NCBI GenBank assembly: GCA_032718475.1
Contig: JAUCBJ010007069.1
Location: forward strand, 1 to 34,717
Length of the DNA stretch: 34,717 nucleotides
Reading direction: 5' to 3'
DNA from: Nemertoderma westbladi
Lineage: Eukaryota; Animalia; Xenacoelomorpha
Every line of letters begins with the position of its first letter. Position 1 is the first letter of the stretch. Below the pieces are notes generated by a model, which saw only the letters and a program-made list of their open reading frames with translations, searched no databases and was not told the origin of the DNA. Below are positions 9,934-34,717 of the stretch, piece after piece. The translations under genes and the position numbers were made by a program.

Positions 9934-10352
9934 AGTTAGTGATGGCGTTACACGTGAAGGACTTAGAGATTAAGTTAGTGATGGCGTTACACGTGAAGGA
10001 CTTAGAGATTAAGTTAGTGATGGGATGGCGTTACACGTGAAGGACTTAGAGATCAAGTTAGGGATGGCGTTACATGTGAAGGACTTATAGATTAAGTTAG
10101 TGATGGCGTTACATGTGAAGGACTTAGTTACACGTGAAGGACTTATAGATTACGTTAGTGATGGCGTTACACGTGAAGGACTTAGAGATTACTTTAGTGA
10201 TGGCGTAACATGTGAAGGACTTAGAGATTAAGTTAGTGATGGGATGGCGTTACACGTGAAGGACTTAGAGATTAAGTTAGTGGTGGCGTTACATGTGAAG
10301 GACTTAAGATTAAGTTAGTGATGGCGTTACACGTGAAGGACTTTAAGTTAGT
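9934..10352. repeat. 39-bp minisatellite, ~11 copies
   Basis: Unit AGTTAGTGATGGCGTTACACGTGAAGGACTTAGAGATTA with small indels; no unique spacers. Confidence 0.95.
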
Positions 10353-14524: not shown

Positions 14525-15285
14525 TCTACCACTAACTCTTACTAACCGGTACTACGTACCCTCTTACTAACTTCTAACTCCACTAACTCTTACTAACCGG
14601 TACTACGTACCCTCTTACTAACCTCTGACTCCACTAACTCTTACTAACCGGTACTACGTACCCTCTTACTAACTTCTAACTAACTCCTACTAACCGGTAC
14701 TACATACCCTCTTACTATCCTCTAACTAACTCCTACTAACCGGTACTACGTACCCTCTTACTAACCTCTAACTAACTCCTACTAACCGGTACTACGTACC
14801 CTCTTACTAACCTCTAACTAACTCCTACTAACCGGTACTACGTACCCTCTTACTAACCTCTAACTAACTCCTACTAACCGGTACTACATACCCTCATACT
14901 AACCTCTAACTAACTCCTACTAACTGGTACTACGTACCCTCTTACTAACCTCTAACTAACTCCTATTAACCGGTACTACGTACCCTCTTACTAACCTCTA
15001 ACTAACTCCTACTAACCGGTACTACGTACCCTCTTACTAACCTCTAACTGACTCCTACTAACCGGTACTACGTACCCTCTTACTAACCTCTAACTCTCTC
15101 TCAACTAACGGTACTACGTATCCTCTTACTACTAACTAACTATCTAACTAACGGTACTACATACCCTCTTACTACTAACTAACTATCTAACTAGCGGTAC
15201 TACGTACCCTCTTACTACTAACTAACTATCTAACTAGCGGTACTACGTACCCTCTTACTACTTAACTAACTATCTAACTATCTGC
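14525..15285. repeat. Tandem array, ~16 units of 51, 46 and ~43 bp
   Basis: Core AACCGGTACTACGTACCCTCTTACTA at 14544, 14595, 14646, 14692, then every 46 bp to 15060, then ~43-bp variants. Confidence 0.95.
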
Positions 15286-15695: not shown

Positions 15696-18600
15696 TTAAA
15701 GGCCTGATGACCCCTGTTCATCCTTCGGTATACACGATGTCTGCATATGTAATGCCCCCTCGCACTGTGCCAGTCCCGTGTGCGTGTGTAACACACCTTC
15801 TACTTTCCTGGCTTCTTTGTTACCTTTACTCTTGGGCTTCTCTGCCCCTGGTCTAATCATCTCACATCTTCTCCCTTTCCATCTTGTCTTCTTACTCAGC
15901 CTCTCCCTCTTCGGTATGCCTCTCAACCGGACCGGCGTCTCTTCCGGACGTTCCTCCGGACACTCCTCCGGACGGTTGTCCTCCTGACATCTCGCCGTCC
16001 ACTCCTCTCCATCCCCATACCGATACTTGCTGGGAACATCCTTGTTCCATCCCATTGCCTCTAAATCTTCTGCATCCAAGCCATTCTCCTCCGCCCACTC
16101 TCTTGGTGTTGCTTCCACTTCTAGCTGTCTCCCCCTATCGCCCGTCTCTTGTTTCTCCTCTATCTCCTCAACAGTTCCTGGCACCATGCACCCTGAACTC
16201 TCGGTTACACTGAATGGTATATTGGTTCTGATTGGGCCGGTTAGCGTCCACCCGAATGGTGTTAAAATCGCCACCGGGTCACACTGCCTGTCTTCGCCGA
16301 AGACCGTTTGCATTCTCTCGTGGGCCGTCGGGCAGTCCATTCCTACTATAATGGATACCTTCCTAACGTCCACCTCTGGGATTGAGAAGTCGATACTGTC
16401 CAGGAATTTATATTGCTCGACCTCGATGTTGGTTGGTCGCCTGGCGTTGATATTTATCGACTCTATCACCTGGACGGGGTCGATGGTCGCCCCGTAGTCG
16501 CATCCCGGTGCTATCGCTGCTATTGCGCACCGTCCGGTCCTCATCTCCAGGACCTCATCTTTGCTGGAGATGGTTGTTACCGCCATTCTACTTGGCCTCA
16601 TTCTCAATCCTATCTCTTCGGCCACCCAGTCCTCAACCAGCGTGAAGGCTGCTCCACTGTCGACCAGCATCAGTGTGGTCACTGATCGATTGCCTTCCCC
16701 AATTATCCTTACTGGTACTACCCCTAGTAGTACCGTTCCTCTCTTCTTCGCCCCTACGGTGCTTGTTGCCATCGTCTGACCTTTACTTTGACCGAACTTA
16801 ATTGGCGTTTCCTTGCATTGGTTAGCTCTATGTCCACTCATCACACATTGAGAACAAATTTCATTTCTCCTCGCGTATTCTACCTGATCTTCCCTGGGTA
16901 GTGCTTGCCAGTACCTGCAGTTCATGGTCTGATGAAGTGCATTTGTATGTAATTGGCATTTGTTCTTTGGGTTGTAGCCATCCTTATACAGTGCGCTGCG
17001 TATCGCACTTGCGTTTGTACCAAAGTCCCTACTGTTCTTATTGCTTGGGTTCGGCCTACTGGGTGTGCTGGGGTTATGTTTATTTGTGTTGTTATTTTTC
17101 CCCTGTCCGCTCCATGGTGTGGTCTTACCCCCGGCTACTTGTGGACTAGCAGTCCCCTGCGTTGCCGCATACGGCAGTGATTGTCTGAGCTTTGGCAATG
17201 CGTTCGCCGTGTTATGTTCTGGTTTCGGCCTGTGGTATTCGGTCTTTGATCCCTTTCCCAGGCTATCCTCACTATAGACTGGGTCCGTTATTAGTTCGGC
17301 TTCATAGTTTAAGAAGCTCGACATTTCTTCTAAACCCGGTTCCGCACCCTTCCTGTCTCGAGTGGAGAAGGCGATCTTCCTCCTCTTGTTGCGCAACCAC
17401 ATCGGCAGTGCCTGCGCTATCGTGGTGATGTTATTGGATGCGTTAAGTTCGTATGGCGCGTCCAGCGTCTTTAACACGATTAGCGCTTTCTCGACTTTGT
17501 TAGCGAATGTCTTTATGCTAACGGGGTTATCCTGTAGGCCACCCGATGTTATACCTCTCAGGGTTTGCCGGATGATCTTGGCTGGGTGCCCGTACTCCCT
17601 GTCTAGTGCCCGCCATGCTGTCGTGAAGCCACCCTCGATGCCCTGGTATTGCCTCACGATGTCGTATGCTGGGCCTCCTGTATACACTTGCAGATACTTT
17701 AGGCACTCCGCTTGTGTCAAATTCTTCGTTAGTATTTCATTACTATACATGCGCCGAAACTGTAGGTATTCTTCCGGTCTACTTCCATCGAATTTAAATG
17801 GTTCTACGGGTGGTAACTCGATCCTAGTTTTTAATGCATCGATTAGTGTAGCCATTCCCATTGCTTGTGCTTCCAATGGGTTCGATGGATGCTGTATAGA
17901 TTCTCCCGTTGGGTGCGGTCTGTTCGTCCTGTCTGCTGCTTTCCTTTGACTCGGATATATCATTGGGGGTAGCGGCCCCCTCCATATTTCGGTGTCGCAC
18001 GATCTATTCTCGTCCAAGGGGTTCGATGTTCTTATTCCTATTGGGGTGTATTGTTGATATTGTGATGGGGGAATGTCACCCTGTCCCCCCCCCCCCCCCC
18101 CCACCGGTATGTTTGGTACTGGGGTTGATGTTAATATATTGGGGCCCATACACCTATCCGCAATAACTCTCCCCTCCCCTGGATATATGTTATGTCCTTG
18201 CATGCTGTAGTCATACTGCTGTGCTGGTACCGGTATAGGCCTATCCACTTCTGGCCTACCTGCCGGTATGTACTCCGCGACTTCCGGGTTTAATCCCGTC
18301 GTCCGCGCTATCCTATCGCCTACATTATCTCTCCCAGCATGGCCTATGGTATGTGCAGTAAGGCCTACAGTATGTCCTGCAGTCTGTATGTGTCGCTCGG
18401 GATCGAAGTTTAATCTTCTCGAATAATCCTCCCCGTGGCTACCGTACTCTCGATCGCTAGGCAGATCCCGTCGGGAAGTTTCTCTTCGACCCCCTCTACT
18501 GCTCTCGTCCTCGTACCGGTGCATCCCGTACCCCTCTCTCGACGCGTAGTACGCCTCATCAGGTCGCGTTTCCCCGGGACGACGGCAATCTCCCGAAGTC

Positions 18601-18941
18601 CGACCCCACTGACTCTCCGTCTCCATCTCTACTACCGACGGCTCACTATCCGTCCTCGCTCTCCTGTCGTTCGTGACGACACTTCTTCTACTCTCTTTCC
18701 TTCTTCTCTCTGCAGTGCAGTATCCCCATTCGTGAGATCTCTCGTCGACCTCCCGGTTAAACTCCACTGTTCTTCTTCCCTCTTCTGATCGGGCTCGACG
18801 TTTCGTCGCCCGCCCTCTCGCGACGTCAACCTGTCTCTCTCTGCTCGATCGCACGCCGCCAGGGATACTCGTAACCCCCTTACTATACTCCATCGCCAGG
18901 TGCTGCGGTTCACCTAATTCGCCTCGCGCATTATCCGCCAA
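15696..18941 (-). CDS. BEL/Pao Gag core, Cys/His knuckles and aspartic protease (C-terminal part of polyprotein)
   Basis: FKFDGSRPEEYLQF...LKYLQVYTGG...LDREYG (DUF1759-like); CQLHTNALH...C and CSQCVMSGHRANQC; LVDSGAAFTLV; AILTPFGWTLTGP. Frame stays open upstream to the C20 tract at 19007. Confidence 0.88.
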   Translation of the reverse strand: MADNARGELGEPQHLAMEYSKGVTSIPGGVRSSRERQVDVARGRATKRRARSEEGRRTVEFNREVDERSHEWGYCTAERRRKESRRSVVTNDRRARTDSEPSVVEMETESQWGRTSGDCRRPGETRPDEAYYASREGYGMHRYEDESSRGGRRETSRRDLPSDREYGSHGEDYSRRLNFDPERHIQTAGHTVGLTAHTIGHAGRDNVGDRIARTTGLNPEVAEYIPAGRPEVDRPIPVPAQQYDYSMQGHNIYPGEGRVIADRCMGPNILTSTPVPNIPVGGGGGGQGDIPPSQYQQYTPIGIRTSNPLDENRSCDTEIWRGPLPPMIYPSQRKAADRTNRPHPTGESIQHPSNPLEAQAMGMATLIDALKTRIELPPVEPFKFDGSRPEEYLQFRRMYSNEILTKNLTQAECLKYLQVYTGGPAYDIVRQYQGIEGGFTTAWRALDREYGHPAKIIRQTLRGITSGGLQDNPVSIKTFANKVEKALIVLKTLDAPYELNASNNITTIAQALPMWLRNKRRKIAFSTRDRKGAEPGLEEMSSFLNYEAELITDPVYSEDSLGKGSKTEYHRPKPEHNTANALPKLRQSLPYAATQGTASPQVAGGKTTPWSGQGKNNNTNKHNPSTPSRPNPSNKNSRDFGTNASAIRSALYKDGYNPKNKCQLHTNALHQTMNCRYWQALPREDQVEYARRNEICSQCVMSGHRANQCKETPIKFGQSKGQTMATSTVGAKKRGTVLLGVVPVRIIGEGNRSVTTLMLVDSGAAFTLVEDWVAEEIGLRMRPSRMAVTTISSKDEVLEMRTGRCAIAAIAPGCDYGATIDPVQVIESININARRPTNIEVEQYKFLDSIDFSIPEVDVRKVSIIVGMDCPTAHERMQTVFGEDRQCDPVAILTPFGWTLTGPIRTNIPFSVTESSGCMVPGTVEEIEEKQETGDRGRQLEVEATPREWAEENGLDAEDLEAMGWNKDVPSKYRYGDGEEWTARCQEDNRPEECPEERPEETPVRLRGIPKRERLSKKTRWKGRRCEMIRPGAEKPKSKGNKEARKVEGVLHTHTGLAQCEGALHMQTSCIPKDEQGSSGL

Positions 18942-20734
18942 CGCCTGTGGGACATTCTTTGCCCCCCTCCTCTCGCCGCTATTCTCTCGTTGTGGGGCTC
19001 CTGTAGCCCCCCCCCCCCCCCCCCCCGCTCGCCGCCTATCACTCCACTACCTCTTACTTCACTTCTACACCCCTCTCTAGTCGACACACTAACCCTACTG
19101 CGGCTGGGTCCGTTCACCCCCGCCTCTCTCTCTACTACTGTGTGGCCTACCAGGCCACCCTCGGGTTGACTCAACCCCGCCACTTCCTGCCTACTAACTA
19201 CGTGGCCTACAAGGCCCCCCTCGGGTTGGCTCAACCCCGCCACTTCCTGCCTACTGACTACGTGGCCTACCAGGCTCTCATTGGGGTTTCTCACCCCCGC
19301 CACCTCCTGCCTACTGACTACGTGGCCTACCAAGCCCTCATTTGCCGGGCTATGCACGTCCGCCACGTTCATATTAATAGCACCATTACCAGTATTATCT
19401 GTTAAATCAATTAAGTCCTCCAAATCAATTAAATTATTTTGCACGCCTAAATTAGAAACGGGATTATTCTGTTCGTTTGAAATAAGATTATTTGAATTAT
19501 TTTGCGTAATTATATTATTTGAATTATTTTGTAAATTCGAATTTAGATTATTTGAATTATTTTGTAAATTCAGATTTAGATTATTTGAATTATTTCCTAC
19601 GTTTATATTAGAATGGCTCGGATTTAAATTACTACCATCAGACAAAATGTTATTTCCTGCAACAAAAGTTTGATTAGGGTTATCCACTACGGTACTATTA
19701 ATATTAACGTCCTCTACTGTATTATTATCATTATTACCCCCCCCCCCCCCCCCCCCCCCCCTGCCCGTACGGTCACACCAGTCTCGGGTCTGTCGTCCGG
19801 TCCCTGTAAGTGGGGTATTAATAAATGTTTCCCTAACTCCTGGCTCCTCGTAAATACTACTCGAGCCAGCCTCACTCTCTGACAGCCCCATCTGTGCCAG
19901 TTCTAGTCGGCGCTTCTGTTTGGCTTGATATTGCATAAGCCCCCTCAACCGGGCGTGCATATCATCCCGCACACGCTTTCCCGTTATTTCTCTCTCTCTA
20001 TCCTCTCCTGAACTCTGATCGGCTAACTCCGCCTCTCTCACAACTCTCTCCAGTCGTCTCGCCTCGCGCTCTTTTCGCTCACTCTGCTCTCTCGCCTCAC
20101 GCTCTTCACGTCTATTCTCCTCTCTCGCCTCACGCTCTTCACGTCTATTCTCCTCTCTCGCCTCACGCTCTTCTTGCTCCTTCCTTTCTATCCTCCCTAT
20201 TTCCTCACACTCCTTAAAACTTCTCGCGACCTTTTCGGCTCTCTCTCTGTTCTCTCTAGCCAGTTCTTTCTCCTTTTCTAATAACGCACTCCCTTCTTCC
20301 AACTGTCTCTCTAATTCTCTCTGGTCTAGCGCCGCCAGATCGAGTTGGCACGCCAGATCTATTTCTAGCACCCGTCTTACTTTTGCGGAGGATGTAGCAG
20401 ACTTATCGGTTGCGACGGACTCCCTCCGCCTTCCCGTCCTACTAACTTTCCCCCGCCTTCCGGAATTTTCGCCGACCGACGAGACCGAATCCTCGGGGTT
20501 AACCTCGGATTCGCCCTCCTGCGGTCTCCTCCAACCCACTAATTTAATTCCCCGGGCATCGACTAAGTATGGCCCTATGTACACTACACCAGGCTCCATA
20601 CCCCTGCATTCCCACAGTTCAAACAGTTCGGTGGCAACCCCTCTCGCTCTCTCATCGGCTAGTTCTCCCTGCCCAAAGAGCACTAAGTAATCAAAATGTT
20701 TATTCGACTCACCTAGCCGCTTCTCTAGCTCCAC
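18914..20734 (-). CDS. Gag N-terminal extension: Glu/Arg coiled coil, Asn-rich tract, GLVGHVVSRQEVAG repeats
   Basis: 606-aa ORF overlapping the downstream Gag ORF in the adjacent frame; EEREAREENRR repeats; 60-bp coding repeats at ~19140-19340. True start uncertain. Confidence 0.7.
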   Translation of the reverse strand: MELEKRLGESNKHFDYLVLFGQGELADERARGVATELFELWECRGMEPGVVYIGPYLVDARGIKLVGWRRPQEGESEVNPEDSVSSVGENSGRRGKVSRTGRRRESVATDKSATSSAKVRRVLEIDLACQLDLAALDQRELERQLEEGSALLEKEKELARENRERAEKVARSFKECEEIGRIERKEQEEREAREENRREEREAREENRREEREAREQSERKEREARRLERVVREAELADQSSGEDREREITGKRVRDDMHARLRGLMQYQAKQKRRLELAQMGLSESEAGSSSIYEEPGVRETFINTPLTGTGRQTRDWCDRTGRGGGGGGGGNNDNNTVEDVNINSTVVDNPNQTFVAGNNILSDGSNLNPSHSNINVGNNSNNLNLNLQNNSNNLNSNLQNNSNNIITQNNSNNLISNEQNNPVSNLGVQNNLIDLEDLIDLTDNTGNGAINMNVADVHSPANEGLVGHVVSRQEVAGVRNPNESLVGHVVSRQEVAGLSQPEGGLVGHVVSRQEVAGLSQPEGGLVGHTVVEREAGVNGPSRSRVSVSTREGCRSEVRGSGVIGGERGGGGGGLQEPHNERIAARGGGQRMSHRRWRIMREAN

Positions 20735-23053: not shown

Positions 23054-24745
23054 TACAAAGGAAAAAGACCCTAAGTGTAATACAAAAGACCGCAACTACT
23101 TAAATTTTTTGCAAAAACACCGTAAGTCAGCGAAACTTCGGTTTTTTATCATTGCATAGATAATAAGAAAACGCACACGGTTTTATTGAAATATAATATT
23201 TTGACGACTTACTGTTATTTACTATTAGCTGAAAAGGCGCGAAATACAAAATTGAATTTTCACCAAATGATTTGCGGAGTTTATCATCATCATATCGTCG
23301 GTAAAAAGGCAAAAGGGCATTCGATAAAAAAATTGTTCAGGAGACACTAAAAACCTTATGTCTTTATTGGTTCAACCAAATTTAATATATTTGGTATCTG
23401 GTGAAAGCTCTTTATCATTTTATTTGTTATTTTTTATTTTATTTATACTTTATTCCAGGTAACAATTAATATTAAAATTAACATCAACCCATAATACAGT
23501 AATAATTAATAGCACAGGAGAAGTTGTATAATGTAATTAAAAGTTGGATATTATCGTCGTTAAGCGACTATACTGTATGTAAATTATTATTGACAAATAA
23601 TAATCAGCAGCTTGGTCTATTGGTGTGGTGGCATTCCTGGGCTTCCAATTATGAAGCACTGATTCTATCCCTAGATCGGGCAGCACTGTTTGGGCCCAGT
23701 GCTTTAAATGCTGCAGCCTAGCCCAAACCTGGCTTGCTGGCTTTCATCTTTAACTGGTCGATAAATGGGAACCAAGGCTACTTGGGAAACAGTGTGGAAG
23801 GGTTTACTGTGGAAGATCACCCATGGTGGTGAACAGGCATTCCTTGGCTTAACGACCCTAAAAGATTCTCTCATTCATGATTGACAAATATGTTATTGAA
23901 GATCCTAGAACTATGTATTGTGCACCTATTAACCAGTGAAACAATATTATTTTTAGACACATTAACCCTATCGTACAAACTTTGTATAGATCTATATCGA
24001 ATGTGAATGAAAGACGGTATGTTAATTTTAATTTTATGTTAATTTGAATTTTGGTATGTTAATACCAAAAAATAATGACATACTAGAACGGAAAGGCAAT
24101 TTGAATATCATACGTGCAGCCTAATTATAAGCAACCTTAAGACGGTCTATTCAGAATAATTCTGAGCGGACCATAATGCGTTACAATAAAGAGGCGTGAT
24201 ATATGACCTAAAAAATGTAAATTTCACGGTGTTAGTGCAATGGGGTAGACGACTCGGAAATTTTTTTTCGAGTTTTCGTTGGTTTCATGTGAAAGAGCAT
24301 GTGAAAAAACCCCAGAGAGCAATTTTACTTTAAAAAAAATACTATTGGCCGAATTAGCCCTTTCCGGCCGACTGTATATTTTTGTATACACTGAATTTAT
24401 TTCACTATGAATTGCATAATTTTAACTAATTATAGTTGGTTTCATCCAATTGAGACCCTATCACACTTCCTTTACTTATAAATTACCGATTCTGATTGGA
24501 TAATTGTAGTAGAAGGCTTCAATGAACGATTTTAGATGCTGTGTTTTCAGGTATTGACATGATGACTACCTGGCATAGGAAAGATGGCTATTTAAATGCT
24601 TTGGCAAAGCGATATTGAGAATTTTGATTGGGTATTCCAAAGATGGATTGTCCAATGAGATAATAATACTTCCAGGATAAACGTTACAGTACAGGTAGGC
24701 TGGTAGTGTTATTGAAGTAGTATGGGTATAGCCTTCTTTGGCCCA

Positions 24746-25375
24746 GTGTCTGCCATAGCCCATCATTGATGTCAATCATCGAATGCCTGCGTGTGTCTGC
24801 CATAGCCCATCATTGATGTCAATCATCTAATGCCTGCGTATTGACGACTATTAACAACCAATAGGAACGCAGGAATAATCACAGTTTAACCAATAGGAAT
24901 GTAGGAATGTGATGGCGGCAATATCCTACATTCCATTCCCGGTCATTGACCTCAACAGATTTAGCGCTTCCTTACTCGAATGCTTGTGAGTGTCTGCCAT
25001 ACTTTATCATAGATGTCAATCATTGGATGCCTGCGTATTGACAACTATTATCAACCAATAGGAACGCTTACAGTTAAAGAATGCAGGAATAAATCACAGT
25101 TTAACCAATAGGAATGTAGGAATATGATAGCAGTAAAATCCTACATTGAACAGTTTAATCAATTAGCAAGTCGTCGAACTTGATTACTTAGATGTCAATC
25201 ATTGAATGCCTGCGTATTGACAACTATTATCAACCAATAGGAACGCTTACAGTTAAAGAATGCAGGAATAAATCACAGTTTAACCAGTAGGAATGTAGGA
25301 ATATGATGGCAGTAAGATCCTACATTGACCTCAACAGATTTAGCGCTTCCTTACAGTTTTTAACTAATAGGAACA
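24746..25375. repeat. Composite repeat: 48-bp duplication plus three ~180-200 bp CCAAT-rich units
   Basis: GATGTCAATCAT...TGCCTGCGTATTGAC...ACCAATAGGAACGC...AGGAATGTAGGAAT...ATCCTACATT at ~24815, ~25012, ~25191. Confidence 0.85.
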
Positions 25376-25536
25376 CAACATTATGGTGAAGCAAGATCTC
25401 AGTTTTACAGAATCACCATCCACCAATATTTAATGCCAAATCAAATTGTCTATATGTTGTTGTAGACGGACATATTTTGTTGACAAGCCGGCACAGCATT
25501 CTTAATAATGCAGCTGCAATGCAGCATGCCGATCCT

Positions 25537-25553
25537 AGTAGTAGTAGTAGTAG
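25537..25553 (+). other. Candidate Maverick terminus (AGT)5AG; preceding GATCCT is the candidate 6-bp TSD
   Basis: Polintons begin with 5'-AG, often short AGT/AG repeats, and have 6-bp TSDs; lies ~700 bp beyond the last ORF. Could also be a simple microsatellite. Confidence 0.5.
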
Positions 25554-26242
25554 ACGGATGATGCAGTGGTGCTGTCATAGAAGTAGCGTATGTAAGCCCA
25601 AGTTATTGCCGCTCTCCATGAATTGAAAATGAATTGAAAGATGACTTTAATTGATTATATTAACTTAAGAATAATCTACTGTACTAAACATGTAAATAAG
25701 CCCCTACTGTATGTACAGTGACAGAGCTTGGAAGAGAGTGAGTGCATTCTGCCAAACATGGCAAAGCCTTTTTATCTGTAGTATTCACATAGGCATCAAC
25801 ATGACCTTAATTAATTGTTAATTAACGGTCTGATATTGAATGTTGTGGTGTACAGAATGTGGCTATTATGGTGTCACTATACAAACAGTATTACATAAGG
25901 GTGACGACACATTGTGCACGGTTAACAATTTAAATGATATTAAATTAATTACAACACCCGCCACCACAATATTGTATGACGTCGCATATTGGTTTTCATG
26001 ACAGGTGCCTTCCCGATGATGGAGTTGTTATCTTAGCCTATATAATTCAACAAAGTTTAAAGTTTTACTTTGTGTCTTTGATGAAGTCTATTTCATTAAA
26101 TTATTTATATTTATACAGTATTTATATATTAAAAACGGATATGGGGAGGGAGGGTGTTATTGAAACAGTTGTCAATTATTGTTTTACTTACCTTGTGTAT
26201 ATGTAATATACTCTATCTTAAATTAATTATATATAATAATAA

Positions 26243-26485
26243 TTAATAAAACTTACCTTCTTTCATTGCACCTTTTTCGAAAATTGATTTACCATTTCTG
26301 TATTCACAGTATCTTAAATGATGCGCTTGTTCCGCTTCAGCAAAGAAGTGTGAGTCATGATTTGGACATTGAATCATTTTCTGATGTGGATGATTTTTTC
26401 GACATTTTCTAATATGTCTGACAAATCTGTCCGCATGGATCCTATGGCAAGGGTCATACGGACAGACAATGTATTCGTTATCCAT
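26243..26485 (-). CDS. GTSF1/Asterix-like tandem CHHC (U11-48K type) zinc-finger protein, 80 aa
   Basis: MDNEYIVCPYDPCHRIHADRFVRHIRKCRKNHP...QCPNHDSHFFAEAEQAHHLRYC: two C-x5-H-x9-H-x3-C fingers with GTSF1-like CPYD, RF..H..KCRKNHP signature. ATG at 26485. Confidence 0.88.
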   Translation of the reverse strand: MDNEYIVCPYDPCHRIHADRFVRHIRKCRKNHPHQKMIQCPNHDSHFFAEAEQAHHLRYCEYRNGKSIFEKGAMKEGKFY

Positions 26486-26938
26486 TATTATTATTACAAT
26501 GTTAACCAATTAATTAATAAAATTAGACTGTAAAAATTAGACTAATACTGTAAATGTATCGATAAGTTGTTGACAGCAAAACTAAATTTAACTAATATTT
26601 TAATATACCTTTTATATAAACTAATTATGCACACATCTGACGGTTGTATTCATTATAACCATAATTAACCCACAAGTTCGTTAACCACCCCAATATAGAA
26701 GATGACACATTTTCCCAAGTTAATTGCGGCAACACGCGTGCGTGAGGAGCGATGGTTGATATAGCTCGAGTAGATCTGATGCTTTAAGTTATAACTAATT
26801 AGTCACACACACACACACATGTTATATGTAATTTTTGTCAAGAATTACACTGTTCGGTTGAATGAATTTATATTAACTAGCGGTGGGGCATGACTCATAT
26901 ATTGATTGTGGGACGGTTGTAAGTATTTGGCTACCATT

Positions 26939-27679
26939 ATGTACATTATGGCTAGCAAACTTGACAATAATACGACTGACGACGCATTATTGAAAGACAT
27001 CTGTATCCGTAATGGTATTGTAAATGTATCGCCACACCTGATTACTTTCCCCTCCGATGACAATAGTTTTTATTTCCATGTATATGGGTGTATATTTAAC
27101 GACTCAAAAAGGAGTTACGGATACATTTTAGAATTAGTGCTGGACCCAATTAGCAATAAATATATTGTATTCACGGATGACCTTTGTCGAGCTATCGCGG
27201 ATACAGATATTCTAGAAAGCAATGAAGATTGCGACCTCATAATGCTCGGGTTAGAAGTCCATTCGAATGCTCAGCTGAAAAAACTGACAACATTAAATTG
27301 CGAGAAAACGAGCATTGTTTTAAGCCAGTATGAACCCGGATATGACACGGTCCAAATAACTCTGGAACGTACCCCTTGGAACAGTTGGGCCGCTGGCAGT
27401 CTCTACGGCCATTTTAGATTGTGGGAAATATTGACCACGGGTTTGGGCTACACTACAGATGGACGGAATATATGTGGCACGGAAACAATTCCGATGTGGG
27501 TTGGGAATGCGCGGGACTTCGACGGGCAATTACCTCTCACAGGCTCGGATTGCATGGATAAAATAAAAGAATGGAGTTTAGAGGCCATTAGAGATCGTGT
27601 TTCAAATAATATCGATGGTTTGGGTTTAAGCACCATAGACCGCATTATAAACAATATTACCATGGTTGAATTGGATTAA
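26939..27679 (+). CDS. Hypothetical acidic protein (~245 aa), Maverick cargo
   Basis: Long ORF in AT-rich surroundings, first ATGs at 26939/26948; globular-like composition; no motif recognised. Confidence 0.7.
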   Translation: MYIMASKLDNNTTDDALLKDICIRNGIVNVSPHLITFPSDDNSFYFHVYGCIFNDSKRSYGYILELVLDPISNKYIVFTDDLCRAIADTDILESNEDCDLIMLGLEVHSNAQLKKLTTLNCEKTSIVLSQYEPGYDTVQITLERTPWNSWAAGSLYGHFRLWEILTTGLGYTTDGRNICGTETIPMWVGNARDFDGQLPLTGSDCMDKIKEWSLEAIRDRVSNNIDGLGLSTIDRIINNITMVELD

Positions 27680-27961
27680 TATCTTTGGCCTCTGGTGAAG
27701 GTGTTTTTATTTGTGCTTTATGTTAGAATTAGATTAATATATTTGGCCTTTGGTGAATGTGGTTTTTTTTTTATTTTTATTTGTACTTCATGTTTATTTA
27801 TAAATATTTACTTTCAACAACTAATATAGTATAATATCAATATAAATATCATTATAAATATTTCACCAATACACCAATTTACACCAACTACAACAACAAC
27901 GACAAGTTATATATGTAATTGTAATATAATTGTTAAATATATATTCCCGACCTAAAATAAA

Positions 27962-28414
27962 TTATTTTATTAATAATAACAGTCCATAAACCCATTTCAA
28001 TAATAATAAATCATTATAATGTAAATTATTGGAATTAAATATTTCCATGGCACGAGGGTTTCTTGGAGATTCGGTCAAATAATATAAAGAAAACAAACCA
28101 CACTGTGTTGAATGTGGACCCTGATATACTTTTCTATTAAAAGTATACCTTTCAGTATATTTGTGGAGCCAGTACGACAGTTTAGGCGGGGGGGATCTAC
28201 CGTAAGAATCCATATAATAACCTATTCTATCAACTACACGAACTGAACTCCAGTGCTGCCCTGGAAGCCCCACTCGTTGGTTATTAACAATAAAAGAATA
28301 TTTGTTTTGTTTCTTCTTCCTTTGTAGCTGTATTTGATCTAATTGGTCAATAGCGTATACACCGAGGTATTCGGGCCCTACCGGAAATTTTGCCAATTGT
28401 ATTGAGTCCAACAT
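27962..28414 (-). CDS. Adenain-like cysteine protease (Maverick PRO)
   Basis: GQHW (His), YMDSYG (Asp), YQGPHSTQCGLF (Gln, Cys); likely start MLDSIQ at 28414. Confidence 0.93.
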   Translation of the reverse strand: MLDSIQLAKFPVGPEYLGVYAIDQLDQIQLQRKKKQNKYSFIVNNQRVGLPGQHWSSVRVVDRIGYYMDSYGRSPPPKLSYWLHKYTERYTFNRKVYQGPHSTQCGLFSLYYLTESPRNPRAMEIFNSNNLHYNDLLLLKWVYGLLLLIK

Positions 28415-28558
28415 CTTGATATGTATGTAATCCACCAAAGGCTTAGAAAGAATCCAAGGTTTGACCAAAACGAACGAACACAACGAGCCAAAATGGAAGA
28501 TATAAGTATTTTTGAGATGGTGATGAGCTCTGACAACTCGTCGATGGTAAGCCTTTAC

Positions 28559-29809
28559 TTACTCTGTAATTATTTCTTTAGATTCTGAAATAGATAGAAC
28601 GCTATCGTAACTTGCCATGACGATTACATTAATTGTATGCTCTAGCGCTTCCCTGAATTTTAAAATCAAGTGTCCAGTTGTATGAATGTTGGGTTGTATC
28701 TCGTGACTCTGATCACCTCCAGCGGTAAGATCGAATACAATTAAAGGAAATTGGGTTCGGTATGTTTCAGGAGTGAGCGAACAGTATGCATTAGATAAAC
28801 TTTTGAAGACGTTCATTAAAGTCTCAAATTCTAGCATATAGTTATTTTCACCGAAGTTGGGTCTATAAGGGTAGCCATGTACCACCTTCGAATCAACATT
28901 CAATTCCCCATAGTTTAAGTTGAAATGATTGAAATTTAGCGGATTGCTACCCAATTCTCCATTAAAGCTAGCATTAGTGAGCATGCCCAACAGAATATAT
29001 TTCGGTAACCTCCCTTGAATTATACTTGAGTGAGTATAACTTGACTGCCCGCCCGCAATTGTGAAGGTCTTCACATCTTGCTTCAACAAGTTATATATAA
29101 AGTCATTTTTTTGTGAACCTACAAGATGCGCTCGTGCCACTTCGTCATCGATTTTATGGCGTTTTATCTTTAGATTGATGGCCATTATTTCTACTCTCGC
29201 ATTTGTTAATCCGGCAGGAGGCTCAACCTTCAGGAAAAAATTATTCGACACGCGGTCCATACGAATTCGAGCAGAAATTCCAGGTGGCAGAAGTTTATCC
29301 TGAGCAGCCAAATCCATAAAGAGTGGCGCAATGACGAATTTGATATAATTCCCACGGATGTTGTTGTCAGTGCCAACAGGGACACCACCCTGGTTATTCT
29401 CATTATTCTCATAGCCACCAGCCCTCAAGATGCCACTTTTTTCATTTGCGTCTGTGAGTAGCAATGTTTGAAATATAGACTTATAAGCATAGAACCCATT
29501 CGAGGTTTCGACAAGTTTTTCGTTTAAATATAAAGAGCAATTTTCAAAGAGTGTGCCGCCGGGATAATTGAGATGGTGGAGGGTAGTATTGTCGTTAGCT
29601 CTATCGCCGTCCCAGGTAATTTTATATTTGATGTGGAATTTGGAATTTTTCAAATCTGTATAAAGAATGTTTGATTCGGGTACAAAAAATTCGATTTGGC
29701 GCGCATTTGCATCGAGAGTAGAAATCGGGTAAATGTCCAACCAGTGTGAAGATGTGTATTCTCTTTGATTAGCTTTACTCGAAAATAAAGATAATTCTCT
29801 TTTGCTCAT
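28559..29809 (-). CDS. Major capsid protein (double jelly-roll, Maverick PY/hexon-like)
   Basis: 416 aa; ELSLF...Q...W..IYP N-terminus, LF....LYLN....YAYK, GRLPKYILLGM...SFNG....NPLNFNHFNL, FDLT motifs typical of Maverick MCPs. Confidence 0.88.
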   Translation of the reverse strand: MSKRELSLFSSKANQREYTSSHWLDIYPISTLDANARQIEFFVPESNILYTDLKNSKFHIKYKITWDGDRANDNTTLHHLNYPGGTLFENCSLYLNEKLVETSNGFYAYKSIFQTLLLTDANEKSGILRAGGYENNENNQGGVPVGTDNNIRGNYIKFVIAPLFMDLAAQDKLLPPGISARIRMDRVSNNFFLKVEPPAGLTNARVEIMAINLKIKRHKIDDEVARAHLVGSQKNDFIYNLLKQDVKTFTIAGGQSSYTHSSIIQGRLPKYILLGMLTNASFNGELGSNPLNFNHFNLNYGELNVDSKVVHGYPYRPNFGENNYMLEFETLMNVFKSLSNAYCSLTPETYRTQFPLIVFDLTAGGDQSHEIQPNIHTTGHLILKFREALEHTINVIVMASYDSVLSISESKEIITE

Positions 29810-29862
29810 AGTTTCAGTTTTATTTTCATTTATTATGCAAATACATCATTGCAATGATTATT

Positions 29863-30396
29863 TCACTTTTTACGCCTAACGTTCATACCCACAGTTGGGT
29901 GTCGCCGTTTGCCCCCCTTCTTTTTTTTAGTTGTTGGCTTGTTGAATTCGTCGTATACGCGCTGGGCAATTCTACGCGTCTTAGGCCTCATACGGCCCGC
30001 CGCTTTATTCAACAAATCATCCGCTTTGCGACGCAAGAAACGTTTACCTTCGGGAATTATATATTTTCGTGCCGCTTTTGCCACCTTTGGAAGTGCTTTA
30101 GTTAGTACTTTACGCCCTAACTTACGGGCTAATAATCCAAGCCCAGTTGTCAGCATTCCTTTTCCCCGCTGTTTATTGGCTCGCCCTTGTCTGAGTCTAT
30201 TATTAATCCACCCACGCCGCTGCCTGAGTCTATTACTCCAAATAGGCCCAAGTAAGTTACTTTTAGGTGGGTTAATTTGGGTTATATTACCTGGAAGAAT
30301 GGCACCACCCTTAAAAACTGGTATGTCGTTATAACCCCCTCCCCCTCGTTGAGCATGCGGGCTGCTATATAATTTAAATAAATTTGAATCTGCCAT
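29863..30396 (-). CDS. Arg/Lys-rich putative virion core protein (adenovirus pVII/pX-like role)
   Basis: 177 aa, highly basic, QRGGG and QRGKG motifs followed by an amphipathic segment; directly upstream of MCP. Confidence 0.7.
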   Translation of the reverse strand: MADSNLFKLYSSPHAQRGGGGYNDIPVFKGGAILPGNITQINPPKSNLLGPIWSNRLRQRRGWINNRLRQGRANKQRGKGMLTTGLGLLARKLGRKVLTKALPKVAKAARKYIIPEGKRFLRRKADDLLNKAAGRMRPKTRRIAQRVYDEFNKPTTKKKKGGKRRHPTVGMNVRRKK

Positions 30397-30659
30397 TAGT
30401 TTTATTTATTTATTATATCATAGGTCCTATAATAAAATAATAAGAATAACTATCACCGCATACGTATATGCACAAACAATAAACATTAGATATTGCATAT
30501 AACTGCTATAAACATAGTACTACAACAACAACAACAACAACAACAACAGTAAATATAATGAAAACCACCAACAAATTAAAGTTGTTTTACTAATCAACAA
30601 TATTAACAACATTTTACTTTACAATTTGATGGTTTAAATATTATAATTTGACGTAATAA

Positions 30660-31238
30660 TTACTTTAATAACCATTCACCATAGCCAGCGGCGAGTTTGA
30701 TGGAACAGTAATTGGAACACGCATCGCCAATATCAGAATGAAATGCACACTTTGTTACTAGAGTATCATGGTAAGGGCATTTTACATTATAAGCAACATA
30801 TTTTTCATTTATCCCATAAGACTCTAAAAGTTTTGCACTGACTTTAAATTCATTTTTTAATATATATAATTTTGGTGCTCCGCGAATTAAAATTTCAAAT
30901 CCTCGACGTGCCTTTTCCCGCAACCATTCCTGTATAAATATCTTGAATGTATTTTGATCAATAAAACCATAATCAAAATTTATATGATGGCTTATATTGC
31001 GGACATGGGTGAGGCGTTCGCATTCACTTGAAGTTAATTCTTTGGCAGTCGGTCCGTAAATGAACCAAACATTTTCAACAGATTCAGTAATACTGTTATA
31101 TACAGCAAACTCTTTGAAGTAAATGGTTCCAATGGGTTGGCTGTTCTGCGAATGGATTGTATAATACTGGAAATCTATTATTATCCCAGGCTTACCAAGG
31201 GGAGGATAATCACTGTCGCGACTTAGGTATTTGTTCAT
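30660..31238 (-). CDS. DEDD/DnaQ-derived protein with Maelstrom-like E-C-H-C zinc motif
   Basis: IIDFQ (ExoI-like, DxE to DxQ), YFKEFAV, HHINF, C-terminal CAFH-x9-YCS; domain call by eye. Confidence 0.55.
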   Translation of the reverse strand: MNKYLSRDSDYPPLGKPGIIIDFQYYTIHSQNSQPIGTIYFKEFAVYNSITESVENVWFIYGPTAKELTSSECERLTHVRNISHHINFDYGFIDQNTFKIFIQEWLREKARRGFEILIRGAPKLYILKNEFKVSAKLLESYGINEKYVAYNVKCPYHDTLVTKCAFHSDIGDACSNYCSIKLAAGYGEWLLK

Positions 31239-31313
31239 ATTGATGACAACAAATAAAAATGTTTACAAAAATTTTGGTGAAACGTTTCTTCCAAGTTAAT
31301 AATTGAAGCCACC

Positions 31314-32120
31314 TCATTTGTCAATTCGTATAAAATGAAGTGTTAAAATTGAATCTCCATAATGAAATTGCAACAAATTTCCTGAATCTCCAATCAACCG
31401 AACTCGTATATAACGTAAATTAGATGTTAAATTAACTTTTTTATAGTAGACTTCCTCAACTTCTCGACTAATAATTTGCCCATATTCCCCTTCTATGGGT
31501 ATGCTACGCAACAGAGGGTATTCGCTATTGTCTACAAATTGAGGTTCGACGCAATTGATATGTATATTTATGTTGGGTTCCAGTATTTCGACAGCATCAG
31601 GATGCTTATGGCAGTTGTACTTATTATTCCGTGAATCAATCCTTAGCAAGTGATAATCCCCTACAGCATTTTGTACACACATAAAACCTTTGCCATCAAC
31701 CTCGTGTTCTATTAATCCTAGGTAACCACCCAAACGTTTACTGACAAATATCGACAACTGTTTGCCTTTAAAATGTATGGTTATATTACCAGAGCGTGCT
31801 CTATTATCAATTATATTAATTTGGCCTTTAATAAGGCTTTTGTTGAAGTATTCAATGATCCTTTCCAATGATAGGAAAGATCCTTCGGGGAGAGTAACAT
31901 CTCTTGTAAACATTTTTTTATTTTTTATGGCCTTTATATAAATGTCGCTATTGTCATACCTGATACTAGATACGTACGTTATACCGGTTAAACCTACTAA
32001 CCATTGCCCTCTAGCGAAAGGTAAAGGAATTTGCAAATTTGTTTGGAAATCGCTGGCGCTATTACGTGGGAATTCTATGGGGTTTGCGTTTGAGGGTAGT
32101 ACAACGTAATAACTGTTCAT
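31314..32120 (-). CDS. Minor capsid protein (penton, PX-like) 2
   Basis: YVVLPSNA...FPRNSASDF..L..P, W.VGL..I.Y, PLLRSIP, I.V.L....G....F..G...LTLHF. Confidence 0.85.
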   Translation of the reverse strand: MNSYYVVLPSNANPIEFPRNSASDFQTNLQIPLPFARGQWLVGLTGITYVSSIRYDNSDIYIKAIKNKKMFTRDVTLPEGSFLSLERIIEYFNKSLIKGQINIIDNRARSGNITIHFKGKQLSIFVSKRLGGYLGLIEHEVDGKGFMCVQNAVGDYHLLRIDSRNNKYNCHKHPDAVEILEPNINIHINCVEPQFVDNSEYPLLRSIPIEGEYGQIISREVEEVYYKKVNLTSNLRYIRVRLIGDSGNLLQFHYGDSILTLHFIRIDK

Positions 32121-33001
32121 TCTTGTAGTTTTTGTCGCCGTTGTTGTTTTTTGAGTTCTAGAACTAAAATTGTTTTACCTCCATGAAAGACTATATGCTT
32201 TCCTTTATGGTCGCGAAGCGTTATACTAATTGTATCGAGCACTTTTTTATTTCTTAATTGTTTGTAATGTGTGTTTTTGAATTCCTGGTTGATGAATGAG
32301 TATGGTTCCCATTTCAAGGGGATTATCCGCAAAAGAGGCGCCATCGAATGTCCTACGTGAGAAGATTCAATCATATCTGTATATATAAACATTGTGTGTC
32401 TATCCCTCGTTATATCGCAAGGTTCGGGGAATTCAACTCCATCCATTTTGTTTGTATCCTTACAGCCTAAGTTCAATAAACCATCATCTTCGTTGTAGTG
32501 TATTGCCCAAAGCGCCCCAAGACCCATTAAATTATTTTTTAAACTCGATAACCCGAAAATATTTATTATATCTCCATAGAATTGGAAATAGCGACCTTTC
32601 TTACAATGTAGATGAATTTTTGATGTATGTTTTTGGTAGTTAAACTTAACATCTTTGAAACCGTGGTGGGATATTGAGGGATTTTTCAAATAAACACTAA
32701 TATGGTTTAAAATTGACTCAATAGAAGCATATAGCCCAAGATTAAAATCGATTTCTATAAGATTGTATGGAGCTATATGAAATTCCAAATCCTCATCATA
32801 CATATATTCACCAATTCTAATTCCGGATCTTTGTTCAATATTTCTATAGGTCGACACATACTGTATTTCCTTTAGACCCGCGACCCAATCTGTGCTGACG
32901 GGGATAGGTTTGGACAACTCAATCGTGAAATCGCTGGGAGTGTTATCGGGATATTTATCTAGACTGGCGTCGGAAGTCAACGTTAAATGTAAGTAATCCA
33001 T
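32117..33001 (-). CDS. Minor capsid protein (penton, PX-like) 1
   Basis: LTLTSDAS...YPDNTPSDF..L..PI, W.AGL.EI.Y, FIYTDMIE...VG....PLLRII, ISITLRDHKG..I.F.GG; overlaps next gene by ATGA. Confidence 0.87.
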   Translation of the reverse strand: MDYLHLTLTSDASLDKYPDNTPSDFTIELSKPIPVSTDWVAGLKEIQYVSTYRNIEQRSGIRIGEYMYDEDLEFHIAPYNLIEIDFNLGLYASIESILNHISVYLKNPSISHHGFKDVKFNYQKHTSKIHLHCKKGRYFQFYGDIINIFGLSSLKNNLMGLGALWAIHYNEDDGLLNLGCKDTNKMDGVEFPEPCDITRDRHTMFIYTDMIESSHVGHSMAPLLRIIPLKWEPYSFINQEFKNTHYKQLRNKKVLDTISITLRDHKGKHIVFHGGKTILVLELKKQQRRQKLQE

Positions 33002-33018
33002 AATAATATAATTAATTA

Positions 33019-34104
33019 TTATTGTACGTGATCAACCCTTCGATGTGTCGTAAAACCAACAAATTTAACCAAATATTGCTTTTTGCCGCTTTTATTTACT
33101 TTTTCTTTAATTATTTTTTCAATTGGTAAGAAATTAAATGGTTCTTTTACCTTTTGGATTTCATGTCGATAAAATGTCCCCTTTATAACATGCCCATTCG
33201 AGTCCACAACTTCGTACATAGGGTACGGCTCTCGATCCAATCTTATTCTATAAATTTCAAAAATTTCTACTGTATAATTAGGTGTATAACCTTTGTCAAA
33301 TGGCTTTCTAGCTAAACTCAGCCGCACCTTATCACCAACCTTGAAATGAACTCGACGCTGCGCACGGCGTTTTCTTTTATTGGGATGACCCACACTCCCA
33401 TATAGTTTTAAAAATAGGTCAGTTTCATTCTTTTTATTGACAGAGTTTGGTGCCATACCAATGGTTCTATGTATTGAATTATTATATGCAACCAATATTT
33501 TTGGCAATATACTCATCCATTCTCTATTCTGTCTCCTCGTGAAAATTCTGTACATGCGAGATTTGAGGGTGCGATTGAGCCTTTCACAGATACTAGCTTT
33601 AAATTGGCTAACTAATGTATAAAAATGAACATTATTGTTCTGTAAGAAATCTTTCACCAATTTATTAACAAACTCAGTTCCTTGATCAACTGCTAGTCGT
33701 TTAGGCTTCCTTTCTTCGAATATCGTGGCTAGGGCCCTTTTAATTTCGACCCCTGTTTTACGTTTTAGACCCAACGCCCACGCCTTCCGACTAAAACAGT
33801 CAATACAAGTAAGTATGTAACCGTAGCCATTATTCTCGCCCCTAAAAGGTTGCATATCACACAAATCCGCTTGGTATAGATCGCCAATACCACCCGTGAA
33901 GATTTTTGATGTAGGATAATGGCGTCTAGCCGGAGCGTGTAGAGAGTAGGTCCGTTGAGAGCTCAGCCATTCATTCGCGCGGTTTCTCGAGACCTTCGCG
34001 GCCTTGGCGAGTTTGGCCACACTCGCGAAGCCAGCCGCATGTGAAGCGTCGTAATATATTCTTCCTAGCCGTTTGTTTATTAGATTTTCCTTGATCCTTC
34101 CCAT
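33019..34104 (-). CDS. Retroviral-like (rve) integrase with C-terminal chromodomain-like segment
   Basis: IYYD..H.AGF N-terminus; YQADL, AVDQGTEF, ICERLNRTLK (D,D(33)E); FKVGDKVR, FDKGY; IEKII...QYLVKFVGF. Confidence 0.95.
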   Translation of the reverse strand: MGRIKENLINKRLGRIYYDASHAAGFASVAKLAKAAKVSRNRANEWLSSQRTYSLHAPARRHYPTSKIFTGGIGDLYQADLCDMQPFRGENNGYGYILTCIDCFSRKAWALGLKRKTGVEIKRALATIFEERKPKRLAVDQGTEFVNKLVKDFLQNNNVHFYTLVSQFKASICERLNRTLKSRMYRIFTRRQNREWMSILPKILVAYNNSIHRTIGMAPNSVNKKNETDLFLKLYGSVGHPNKRKRRAQRRVHFKVGDKVRLSLARKPFDKGYTPNYTVEIFEIYRIRLDREPYPMYEVVDSNGHVIKGTFYRHEIQKVKEPFNFLPIEKIIKEKVNKSGKKQYLVKFVGFTTHRRVDHVQ

Positions 34105-34186
34105 CTGTAGTATCGAGTCGTGACGGAAAACATTTACAATGGCAGTTAATACTTAATATGAAACGCTCAAAAAACATAATATTTGG

Positions 34187-34630
34187 TTAGGGCACCACGT
34201 ATTGTTTCCACGCGCTGTCACGTTTTGTAAGGGGAGGAGGAGGAGCCGCGCGCGCCCCCCGTCGTTTCAACCAACCGCGACCAATTAATTTTCTTGGCGT
34301 CCTTAAACGTTTTAATAGCCCTATGAATGCCACTTGCCCCGGAATTATGTGTGTATTTTTCTTATTTTTTTTGTTAGTCAGCAATTCAATCAAATGGGAA
34401 ATATTCGCCTTAGGTATAAGTTTATTTTCTATAAAGAGTTGATTATTACTATCGTCCCATCGCACCCTGTCACGCGAGAAGCGCATTAAATAGCTTAATA
34501 ATCTTTTGCCTTTCCGAGTTGAAATTGCTACACCATCTAGCGGAGGTATTGCAGTATTGCTTCTTCCCTGAGTATCTGGTAATAAAGTTGGAACTAAATA
34601 CAATTTTTTAAAATTTCCGACAGCAACCAT
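34187..34630 (-). CDS. Basic hypothetical protein upstream of integrase
   Basis: 147 aa, same orientation as the cluster; W....LFI....IP.ANI..LI..L pattern resembles ORFs I associate with this position in Mavericks. Confidence 0.65.
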   Translation of the reverse strand: MVAVGNFKKLYLVPTLLPDTQGRSNTAIPPLDGVAISTRKGKRLLSYLMRFSRDRVRWDDSNNQLFIENKLIPKANISHLIELLTNKKNKKNTHIIPGQVAFIGLLKRLRTPRKLIGRGWLKRRGARAAPPPPLTKRDSAWKQYVVP

Positions 34631-34717
34631 TTCATTATACTGCGCTAGAGCTCACGTTTATGGGTTGATAGACTGTTTGTCCCAACGGATTAAATATATC
34701 TCCCCTAACTCTGATAT

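Follow-up and report, generated by a model that had tools for sequence, protein, structure and literature searches.

A GTSF1-like gene in a Polinton/Maverick of Nemertoderma westbladi that also carries a MAEL-like gene

A Polinton/Maverick in the genome of Nemertoderma westbladi carries an open reading frame (ORF) that, judged from its sequence, is a clear homologue of GTSF1, a small host protein by which transposon silencing is normally turned on. The stretch of DNA analysed here, referred to as the window, comprises 34,717 nucleotides (GenBank assembly GCA_032718475.1, contig JAUCBJ010007069.1, positions 1 to 34,717 of the forward strand), and its features are collected in Table 1. The data support that this ORF and a second one, resembling Maelstrom (MAEL), sit in one and the same Polinton. 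The element is of a known kind and has a known mael-type gene, together with a GTSF cargo gene that is apparently unreported. An earlier note on this DNA had taken the pair for a two-component system with which an integrating virus escapes control by PIWI-interacting RNAs (piRNAs). We tentatively favour, at somewhat less than an even chance, that the GTSF gene was captured from a host by one Polinton lineage and would act as a competitor at the step of PIWI activation, and that the mael gene is older and was not co-acquired.

The GTSF1-like gene

The GTSF family is defined by two tandem fingers of the form CP-x4-H-x9-H-x3-C (PMC9539491; this and the other papers are cited here for those parts of their text that were available). 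The ORF has its fingers at residues 8-28 and 40-60, both of them perfect CHHC with all eight zinc ligands kept, and these two are the only occurrences of the pattern in the six frames of the window, whereas 200 shuffles gave 0.0 on average. It matches Pfam PF05253 above the cut-off (E=2.1e-8), and phmmer against PDB sequences found mouse GTSF1 (6x46, E=6e-12), the GTSF1 chain of 9nhb (E=7.4e-8) and U11-48K (E=0.013); the closest solved relatives are GTSF1 proteins, and not U11-48K or TRM13. In the ESM Atlas, 28 of 30 matches belong to PF05253, the top cluster being one of 78 aa with 191 members, and the listed clusters are 100% Eukaryota. A word-indexed search with the ORF gave no candidate. 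A start codon is present, and there is no internal stop. The likeness to GTSF1 that had first drawn attention to this gene is therefore borne out by the family match, the match to 6x46 and the two fingers unique in the window.

In mouse GTSF1, R26, R29, K36 and K39 are required for PIWI activation (PMC9385479). Their equivalents here are H17, R20, K27 and K30, so that three of the four RNA-binding residues are kept and R26 is replaced by His. Binding of PIWI relies on the central aromatic region of GTSF (PMC9539491, PMC9385479), which in mouse includes W98, W107 and W112; within the single ORF, only 20 residues follow the second finger, with zero Trp among them. However, the ORF may be no more than a first coding exon, as a consensus splice donor overlaps its last codons. 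Contigs covering the window were compared from four sequencing runs (X1 to X4) of at most three samples, X1 and X2 belonging to one sample record. Diverged copies of the GTSF-like sequence in X1, X2 and X3, differing for instance at 9 and 18 of 154 nt, cease to match exactly at 26257, from where they continue in other donor-like sequence. Since the similarity of these copies breaks at the donor, the gene is probably spliced, and a PIWI-binding aromatic tail may exist downstream.

The Polinton and its limits

A minus-strand gene block occupies the right third of the window, and its genes come in the order of the Maverick module int-mcp-pw-Mcp-pro, beyond which lies an accessory region. In Mavericks this region holds diverse ORFs (PMC8097293). 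Integrase homologues numbered 465, and we compared the window with 96 loci fetched with an integrase alignment (16 viral, and the best 80 of 570 metagenomic ones), of which 30 measure at least 8 kb, most are partial and the hosts are not named; homologues of the capsid and protease ORFs among them were counted at E<1e-3. Direct locus scans with the capsid and integrase of the window gave no match, and a capsid alignment led to one locus that was already known. A PDB sequence search with a capsid profile gave no match either. The labels major capsid, minor capsid and (adenain-type) protease are ones that we presume from gene order and general knowledge of such elements. Integrase, capsid and protease genes together mark the element as a Polinton/Maverick. 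The morphogenesis genes had been described as intact, and this holds for the integrase, the protease, the major capsid-like ORF and two minor capsid-like ORFs, but a packaging ATPase and pPolB do not lie within the window, which ends at 34717.

The left end of the Polinton likely lies at 24716. An X1 contig matches positions 24436-24715 and from exactly that base continues with 124 unlike letters, and the window reads AGTAGT there, which is the commonest end motif of vertebrate Mavericks (PMC8097293). As AGTAGT occurs 12 times in the window, it is the breakpoint, rather than the hexamer, that provides the evidence for this end. The right end lies beyond the window, within which no inverted partner of the subterminal repeats at 24732-25328 was found. 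Polintons are marked by terminal inverted repeats, an end motif and a 6-bp target duplication, and of these the window shows the likely left motif. The claim that both genes share one element thus stands on its left side, where end motif and breakpoint coincide, and on the right the terminal inverted repeat falls beyond the window. Another AGTAGT run, at 25537-25551, was considered as an element end and rejected, being the tail of a high-copy SINE-like (short interspersed element-like) insertion, upstream of which very many contigs run into differing sequence.

Both secondary insertions, this one and a solo long terminal repeat (LTR), lie between the left end and the GTSF-like gene, downstream of its splice donor. 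Other copies of the solo LTR have loose ends that show sequence like a primer-binding site and like a polypurine tract. Loose ends of X1 and X3 contigs at 26004 match the sequence to the left of the LTR, which means that those copies are without the LTR insertion. From 26004 to the MAEL-like gene, a stretch covered by overlapping contigs rather than by one single contig, contig depth is similar within a run (68-92 in X2, 108-134 in X3), where depth is not to be equated with copy number. The GTSF-like gene is probably located inside the Polinton. In run X4 most of 26080-31155, the GTSF-like exon included, is uncovered; this run may lack the element or may be incomplete, and nothing is concluded from it. 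Some contig joints bypass the GTSF-like gene (26247-27764, 26256-26578 and 26066-26281), and they were not trusted, their short side being 21-30 letters long and AT-rich.

Contig depth also varies along the element and between runs. Cover of the integrase and minor capsid genes (31600-34300) is tens of times deeper than that of the protease gene and of the GTSF-like and MAEL-like genes, which suggests a much more abundant sister family sharing only the integrase/minor-capsid part at 85% identity or more, as in mosaic Polintons. Between X1 and X2, summed depth differs by about 1.2-fold over host repeats, about 2-14-fold over element-specific bins (the 26228-31155 region) and about 10-24-fold over the integrase/minor-capsid region (within 31156-34291). 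This gap could be due to enrichment of Polinton DNA in one library, perhaps as free genomes, or to library bias.

The MAEL-like gene and its pairing with the GTSF1-like gene

The MAEL-like ORF has no internal stop, and it had no match in Pfam (PF13017 included) or among PDB sequences and 0 homologues in the homologue search; its sole match among 1.84 billion representatives was a spurious repeat and was discarded. In the ESM Atlas, 24 of 30 matches are unnamed arthropod or Preplasmiviricota clusters (0.95), behind which come four Maelstrom PF13017 clusters (0.90, 172 shared features). Motif scans and gene maps revealed five Polinton loci (L006, L007, L009, L017 and L052) with a protein of the pattern D-x-Q/A...KE-x-A, C...H...CA. 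A hidden Markov model of this five-locus family, from which the window protein was excluded, puts the window ORF ahead of all other sequences from outside the family, with 11.5 bits and E ~0.04 in ~4,270 sequences. None of the 1,739 shuffles scored (of 2,000) reached this value, the shuffle maximum being 7.0, and the ORF is 15-22% identical to the relatives found. These results give a weak but consistent indication that the ORF is homologous to a family of small DEDD-like Polinton ORFs.

A single-sequence fold of the ORF was unusable, with a pLDDT (predicted score of the local distance difference test) of 34.7, no Foldseek match at E<=0.001 and a best Z of 4.2. With the Polinton relatives as alignment, the model reached a pLDDT of 59 and a predicted template modelling score of 0.59. 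Foldseek then returned DEDDh exonucleases (3'hExo, E=2.7e-4), and the VIA-align matches were nearly all DnaQ-type domains (best Z 9.0, root-mean-square deviation 3.3, 121 aligned). As such, the protein is predicted to have a DEDD/DnaQ nuclease fold without the catalytic tetrad. The listed fold matches of this better model include no Maelstrom structure, and Lassa nucleoprotein (NP) stands at rank 47 with Z 6.7. The top viral fold match is a protein of Drosophila-associated adintovirus 2 (E=1.3e-5), a result that is partly circular, as the model was built from Polinton relatives. Ichnovirus proteins in BFVD match the model as well (GfV-D6-ORF1, AsIV-cont00151-ORF1 and GfV-B38-ORF1, E 1.9e-4 to 1.3e-3), from which it follows that wasp polydnaviruses may deliver this family too.

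Where Bombyx MAEL has D122, N124, E137, C290, H293, C302 and R306 (PMC4408791), the window ORF has D22, Q24, E43, C164, H167, C178 and L182, a pseudo-nuclease pattern. The E-C-H-C spacing fits E43/C164/H167/C178 as candidate ligands; a second C-x2-H is found at C154/H157, the alignments differ on the register, and the region has a pLDDT below 50. No HMG box was seen in the ORF, which has 17 residues before its first strand and no HMG match in Pfam. The zinc motif of Maelstrom is also found in arenavirus NP, where it serves a non-piRNA purpose (10.1101/2021.02.01.429129), so that the motif alone implies no piRNA role. 'MAEL' is a label in Supplementary Fig. S2 of Starrett 2021 (PMC8502044), the gene being mapped in many adintoviruses/Polintons, and of two groups of insect Polintons one is defined by 'mael' (Pannagram, 10.1101/2025.02.07.637071). 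By motif and gene order, the window ORF likely belongs to this published family. On its kinship to cellular Maelstrom, as opposed to the rest of the DEDD proteins, the results are mixed. The MAEL likeness seen earlier is therefore retained in part: the predicted fold and the ESM clusters speak for it, but no Pfam or PDB sequence match and no listed Maelstrom fold match does.

The premise that GTSF and Maelstrom act together with PIWI holds, as reviews place them in one complex with target-engaged PIWI (PMC13618286, PMC13269885), which makes the pairing biologically coherent. The two genes were said to lie within about 5 kb of each other in one element; the coordinates, the GTSF1 homology, a MAEL-like pseudo-nuclease pattern and the location of both in one Polinton are supported. 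The genes are not adjacent, and the MAEL likeness is borne out in part. Four ORFs lie between them, the one gene being in the terminal accessory region and the other in the virion gene block. A MAEL-type gene was found in 5 of the 96 related loci, a set in which divergent mael genes would escape detection, and none of these five has a GTSF-type finger. Searches by motif, phmmer and tblastn found no such finger in any of the 96, of which, as said, 30 reach 8 kb. Co-occurrence is thus unsupported: mael exists in Polintons without detected GTSF. The idea of the pair as a module is not supported by this comparison, with the MAEL-like gene most likely stemming from a known, widespread family, the two genes in different modules, and no joint locus among the 96. 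The data fit distinct histories for the two, in which mael is an old gene of Polintons and GTSF a capture specific to one lineage.

Explanations for the GTSF1-like gene

In the explanation that we tentatively prefer, one Polinton lineage would have captured a host GTSF gene into what is likely its terminal accessory region, and the MAEL-like ORF would be an older, standard Polinton gene that was already present. The viral protein would then fill the RNA/PIWI site of host GTSF without completing the activated complex, and slicing or silencing of Polinton transcripts would fall as a result. In this we infer where the element ends, that the gene came from a host, that the protein is under selection and expressed in the germline, and that its action is inhibitory. 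Competition is suggested by the homology, by both fingers being intact, by the three of four RNA-binding residues and by an accessory position as in Mavericks. Furthermore, sister copies match over the exon and break at the donor, as is expected of a spliced exon under selection. The described roles of GTSF proteins lie in small-RNA silencing (PMC13650160, PMC9539491), and an activator of its own silencing would thus be useless to the element unless altered. Transposons, moreover, have repeatedly captured piRNA-pathway genes for anti-silencing (PMC13534243).

We must however take into account several points that weigh against this explanation. Mouse GTSF1 with W98A/W107A/W112A binds ~60-fold more weakly, and still activates at saturation (PMC9385479). 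Such a Trp-less GTSF1 is a weak activator and not an inhibitor, which means that a short tail does not entail inhibition, and by analogy the short form in the window could be inert or a weak activator. Nothing on truncated GTSF forms was found in the available part of PMC9808576. Short tandem-CHHC proteins like those of the 78-aa cluster are common in eukaryotes, and the listed differences between copies of the gene are few, both silent and residue-changing. No recurrence of a GTSF-type gene was seen among the related loci, and the window copy has suffered two secondary insertions downstream of the donor. Lastly, it is by analogy that the viral proteins would bind PIWI, be expressed and cause derepression.

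Several of these points would equally suit a neutral passenger, in which one lineage of Polintons took up the exon of a host GTSF paralogue and carries it without any role, the MAEL-like gene serving the virus in some unrelated way (by binding RNA, for example, or by shielding it from antiviral sensing). This we regard as unlikely, though as a serious contender. The absence of GTSF-type genes from the 96 loci, the diversity of ORFs in Maverick accessory regions and the commonness of short CHHC proteins speak for a passenger; yet the ORF has remained open with 8 of 8 zinc ligands in a copy old enough to have received two secondary insertions, and diverged copies resemble one another over the exon only.

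We consider it rather improbable that the viral GTSF-like and MAEL-like proteins together mimic the host cofactors, filling both cofactor sites of target-engaged PIWI in a dead-end complex. That host GTSF and Maelstrom occur in one PIWI complex, as stated in the reviews and in a PDB title, would be in line with such a mimic, as would the ESM features that reach Maelstrom clusters and the metazoan Maelstrom pattern in the viral ORF, in which the first Asp is kept, the second acidic residue is replaced, and the Glu and C-x2-H...C are present. Conversely, MAEL-type genes are widespread without GTSF, the two genes are separated by four ORFs and belong to different modules, the viral MAEL-like protein consists of 192 aa without an HMG box, and arenavirus NP uses the same zinc motif for another purpose.

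It seems improbable, too, that anti-silencing takes place at the level of RNA, as for Drosophila TART/nxf2; antisense piRNAs from the GTSF-like DNA of the element would then knock down host GTSF mRNA, and the protein would be incidental. At least nine captures, eight of them of piRNA-pathway genes, are described in telomeric transposons (PMC13534243), and copies of the GTSF-like sequence at 88-94% nucleotide identity are present in the same runs, one of which could be the host gene. However, the precedents are fragments of 140-235 bp that fail below ~82% identity (PMC13534243), and the start codon, two whole fingers and donor found here suggest a protein-coding gene. Least probable in our view is a repurposed RNA-binding or scaffold protein whose fingers would attach to tRNA, to viral RNA or to a partner other than PIWI, for instance an RNA-dependent RNA polymerase (RdRP), and so aid viral gene expression: CHHC fingers do bind structured RNA and tRNA (PMC9539491), nematode GTSF-1 binds RdRP through its fingers alone, with no need for the tail (PMC13650160), and the basic residues are mostly kept, but this argument is one of analogy, and no result points to a partner.

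Comparison with known systems places the element as follows. It shares with vertebrate Mavericks (PMC8097293) the one-strand order of integrase, minor capsid, PW, major capsid and protease, the accessory region thereafter and, likely, the (AGT)2 end, but it has two minor capsid paralogues, a MAEL-type gene within the module and a GTSF-like gene in the accessory region. The latter resembles GTSF1/Asterix (6x46, and 9nhb, a SIWI-piRNA-target-GTSF1 complex) in its two fingers in register and in three of the four RNA-binding basic residues, and differs in being Polinton-encoded, in its 80 aa, in the His for R26 and, unless spliced, in the missing Trp-bearing region. Like adintovirus/Polinton 'MAEL', the MAEL-like ORF is small, has a predicted DEDD fold and stands within or next to the capsid block, with D-x-Q...KE-x-A and C-x2-H...C as in the five Polinton loci, but it is flanked by the minor capsids and the basic protein rather than following the hexon, and it is by motif and gene order that we set it beside the published label. 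With cellular Maelstrom of Bombyx and Drosophila it shares the predicted DEDD/DnaQ fold, the candidate E-C-H-C ligands and an incomplete DEDD tetrad, and it differs in having neither HMG box nor PF13017 match, the region of the zinc site being of low confidence in the model. The arenavirus NP exonuclease likewise has a DEDD/DnaQ fold and this zinc motif, here a candidate one, but keeps its catalytic residues, whereas the window ORF is without the full tetrad. Captures of the TART/nxf2 type also put sequence of a host piRNA-pathway gene into a mobile element, but those are 140-235-bp fragments working via piRNAs, and here a DNA virus-like element holds an open ORF whose domains are whole.

Full-text literature searches, with most subscription papers outside their scope, brought up no report of a Polinton or virus with a GTSF gene; 'GTSF' does not occur in the available Pannagram text, nor do 'GTSF' or 'CHHC' in the readable part of the Starrett 2021 supplement. 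The element bears on the question of how large integrating DNA viruses persist in germlines guarded by piRNAs. The anti-piRNA cases in PMC13534243 work via captured DNA fragments and small RNAs. A Polinton-encoded GTSF would be a small candidate protein inhibitor of PIWI activation that is testable with existing slicing assays, and the element lends itself as a natural test case for an action of Polinton mael, long labelled but uncharacterised, on the piRNA pathway. If the two proteins did form a joint mimic, this would amount to a protein-level 'anti-PIWI' comparable to anti-CRISPRs, and would provide a function for the widespread Polinton mael; if the GTSF gene were a passenger, it would only be a new cargo gene.

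Other features of the window

Table 1. Coordinates of the Polinton and its associated features in the window
Feature	Position	Strand	Basis
Likely Polinton left terminus, (AGT)2 end motif	24716..24721	+	motif and X1 contig breakpoint
Subterminal repeats in tandem (units of 47 bp and 179 bp), likely belonging to the terminal repeat region	24732..25328	.	repeat scan
Secondary insertion, 79-bp 5'-truncated SINE/LINE-like end (LINE, long interspersed element), (TAG)n tail, 9-bp direct repeat	25471..25549	+	flanks
Secondary insertion, 431-bp solo LTR, TG...CA, 5-bp target duplication	25573..26003	-	flanks
GTSF1-family tandem CHHC zinc-finger ORF, 80 aa, possibly first coding exon only	26243..26485	-	Pfam, phmmer, motif
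Consensus splice donor overlapping last codons of GTSF-like ORF; exon would end at 26257	26251..26259	-	sequence; copies break at 26257
Accessory ORF, 246 aa	26939..27679	+	no family match
Maturation protease-like ORF	27962..28414	-	homologues in 39/96 integrase loci; gene order
Major capsid protein-like ORF, 416 aa	28559..29809	-	homologues in 42/96 loci
Basic 177-aa ORF in PW/core protein position	29863..30396	-	gene position; no homologue detected in related loci
Polinton 'MAEL'-type predicted DEDD-fold pseudo-nuclease, 192 aa	30660..31238	-	D22, Q24, E43; candidate zinc ligands C164, H167, C178
Minor capsid-like ORF 1	31314..32120	-	homologues in 47/96 loci
Minor capsid-like ORF 2	32117..33001	-	homologues in 55/96 loci
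Retroviral-type integrase, C-terminal chromodomain	33019..34104	-	Pfam rve E=2.7e-11; Chromo match below its cut-off (E=0.0027)
147-aa ORF, weak homologues directly upstream of integrase in other Polintons	34187..34630	-	7 matches at E<=0.05, 2 at E<1e-3

The tandem minor capsid-like ORFs are paralogues that are 24% identical, and several related loci (e.g. L012, L038 and L048) likewise show more than one such ORF. The 246-aa accessory ORF, which had no match in Pfam, PDB sequences or the 96 related loci, is oriented divergently to the GTSF-like gene; in one X1 contig a single nucleotide is deleted at 27503, a deletion that the X2 and X3 contigs do not have.

Elsewhere in the window, a BEL/Pao-type gag-protease ORF with DUF1759 and an aspartyl protease lies at 15696-20599 on the minus strand, preceded by a 561-aa low-complexity ORF; no reverse transcriptase ORF of at least 80 aa was seen beside it in the ORF list. 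Very-high-copy repeat fragments are the SINE-like element at 25471-25549 and a ~60-bp tandem unit at 23735-23845. Furthermore, two minisatellites are present, one with 10 copies of 39 bp at 9928-10343 and the other with 16 copies of 46 bp at 14531-15271.

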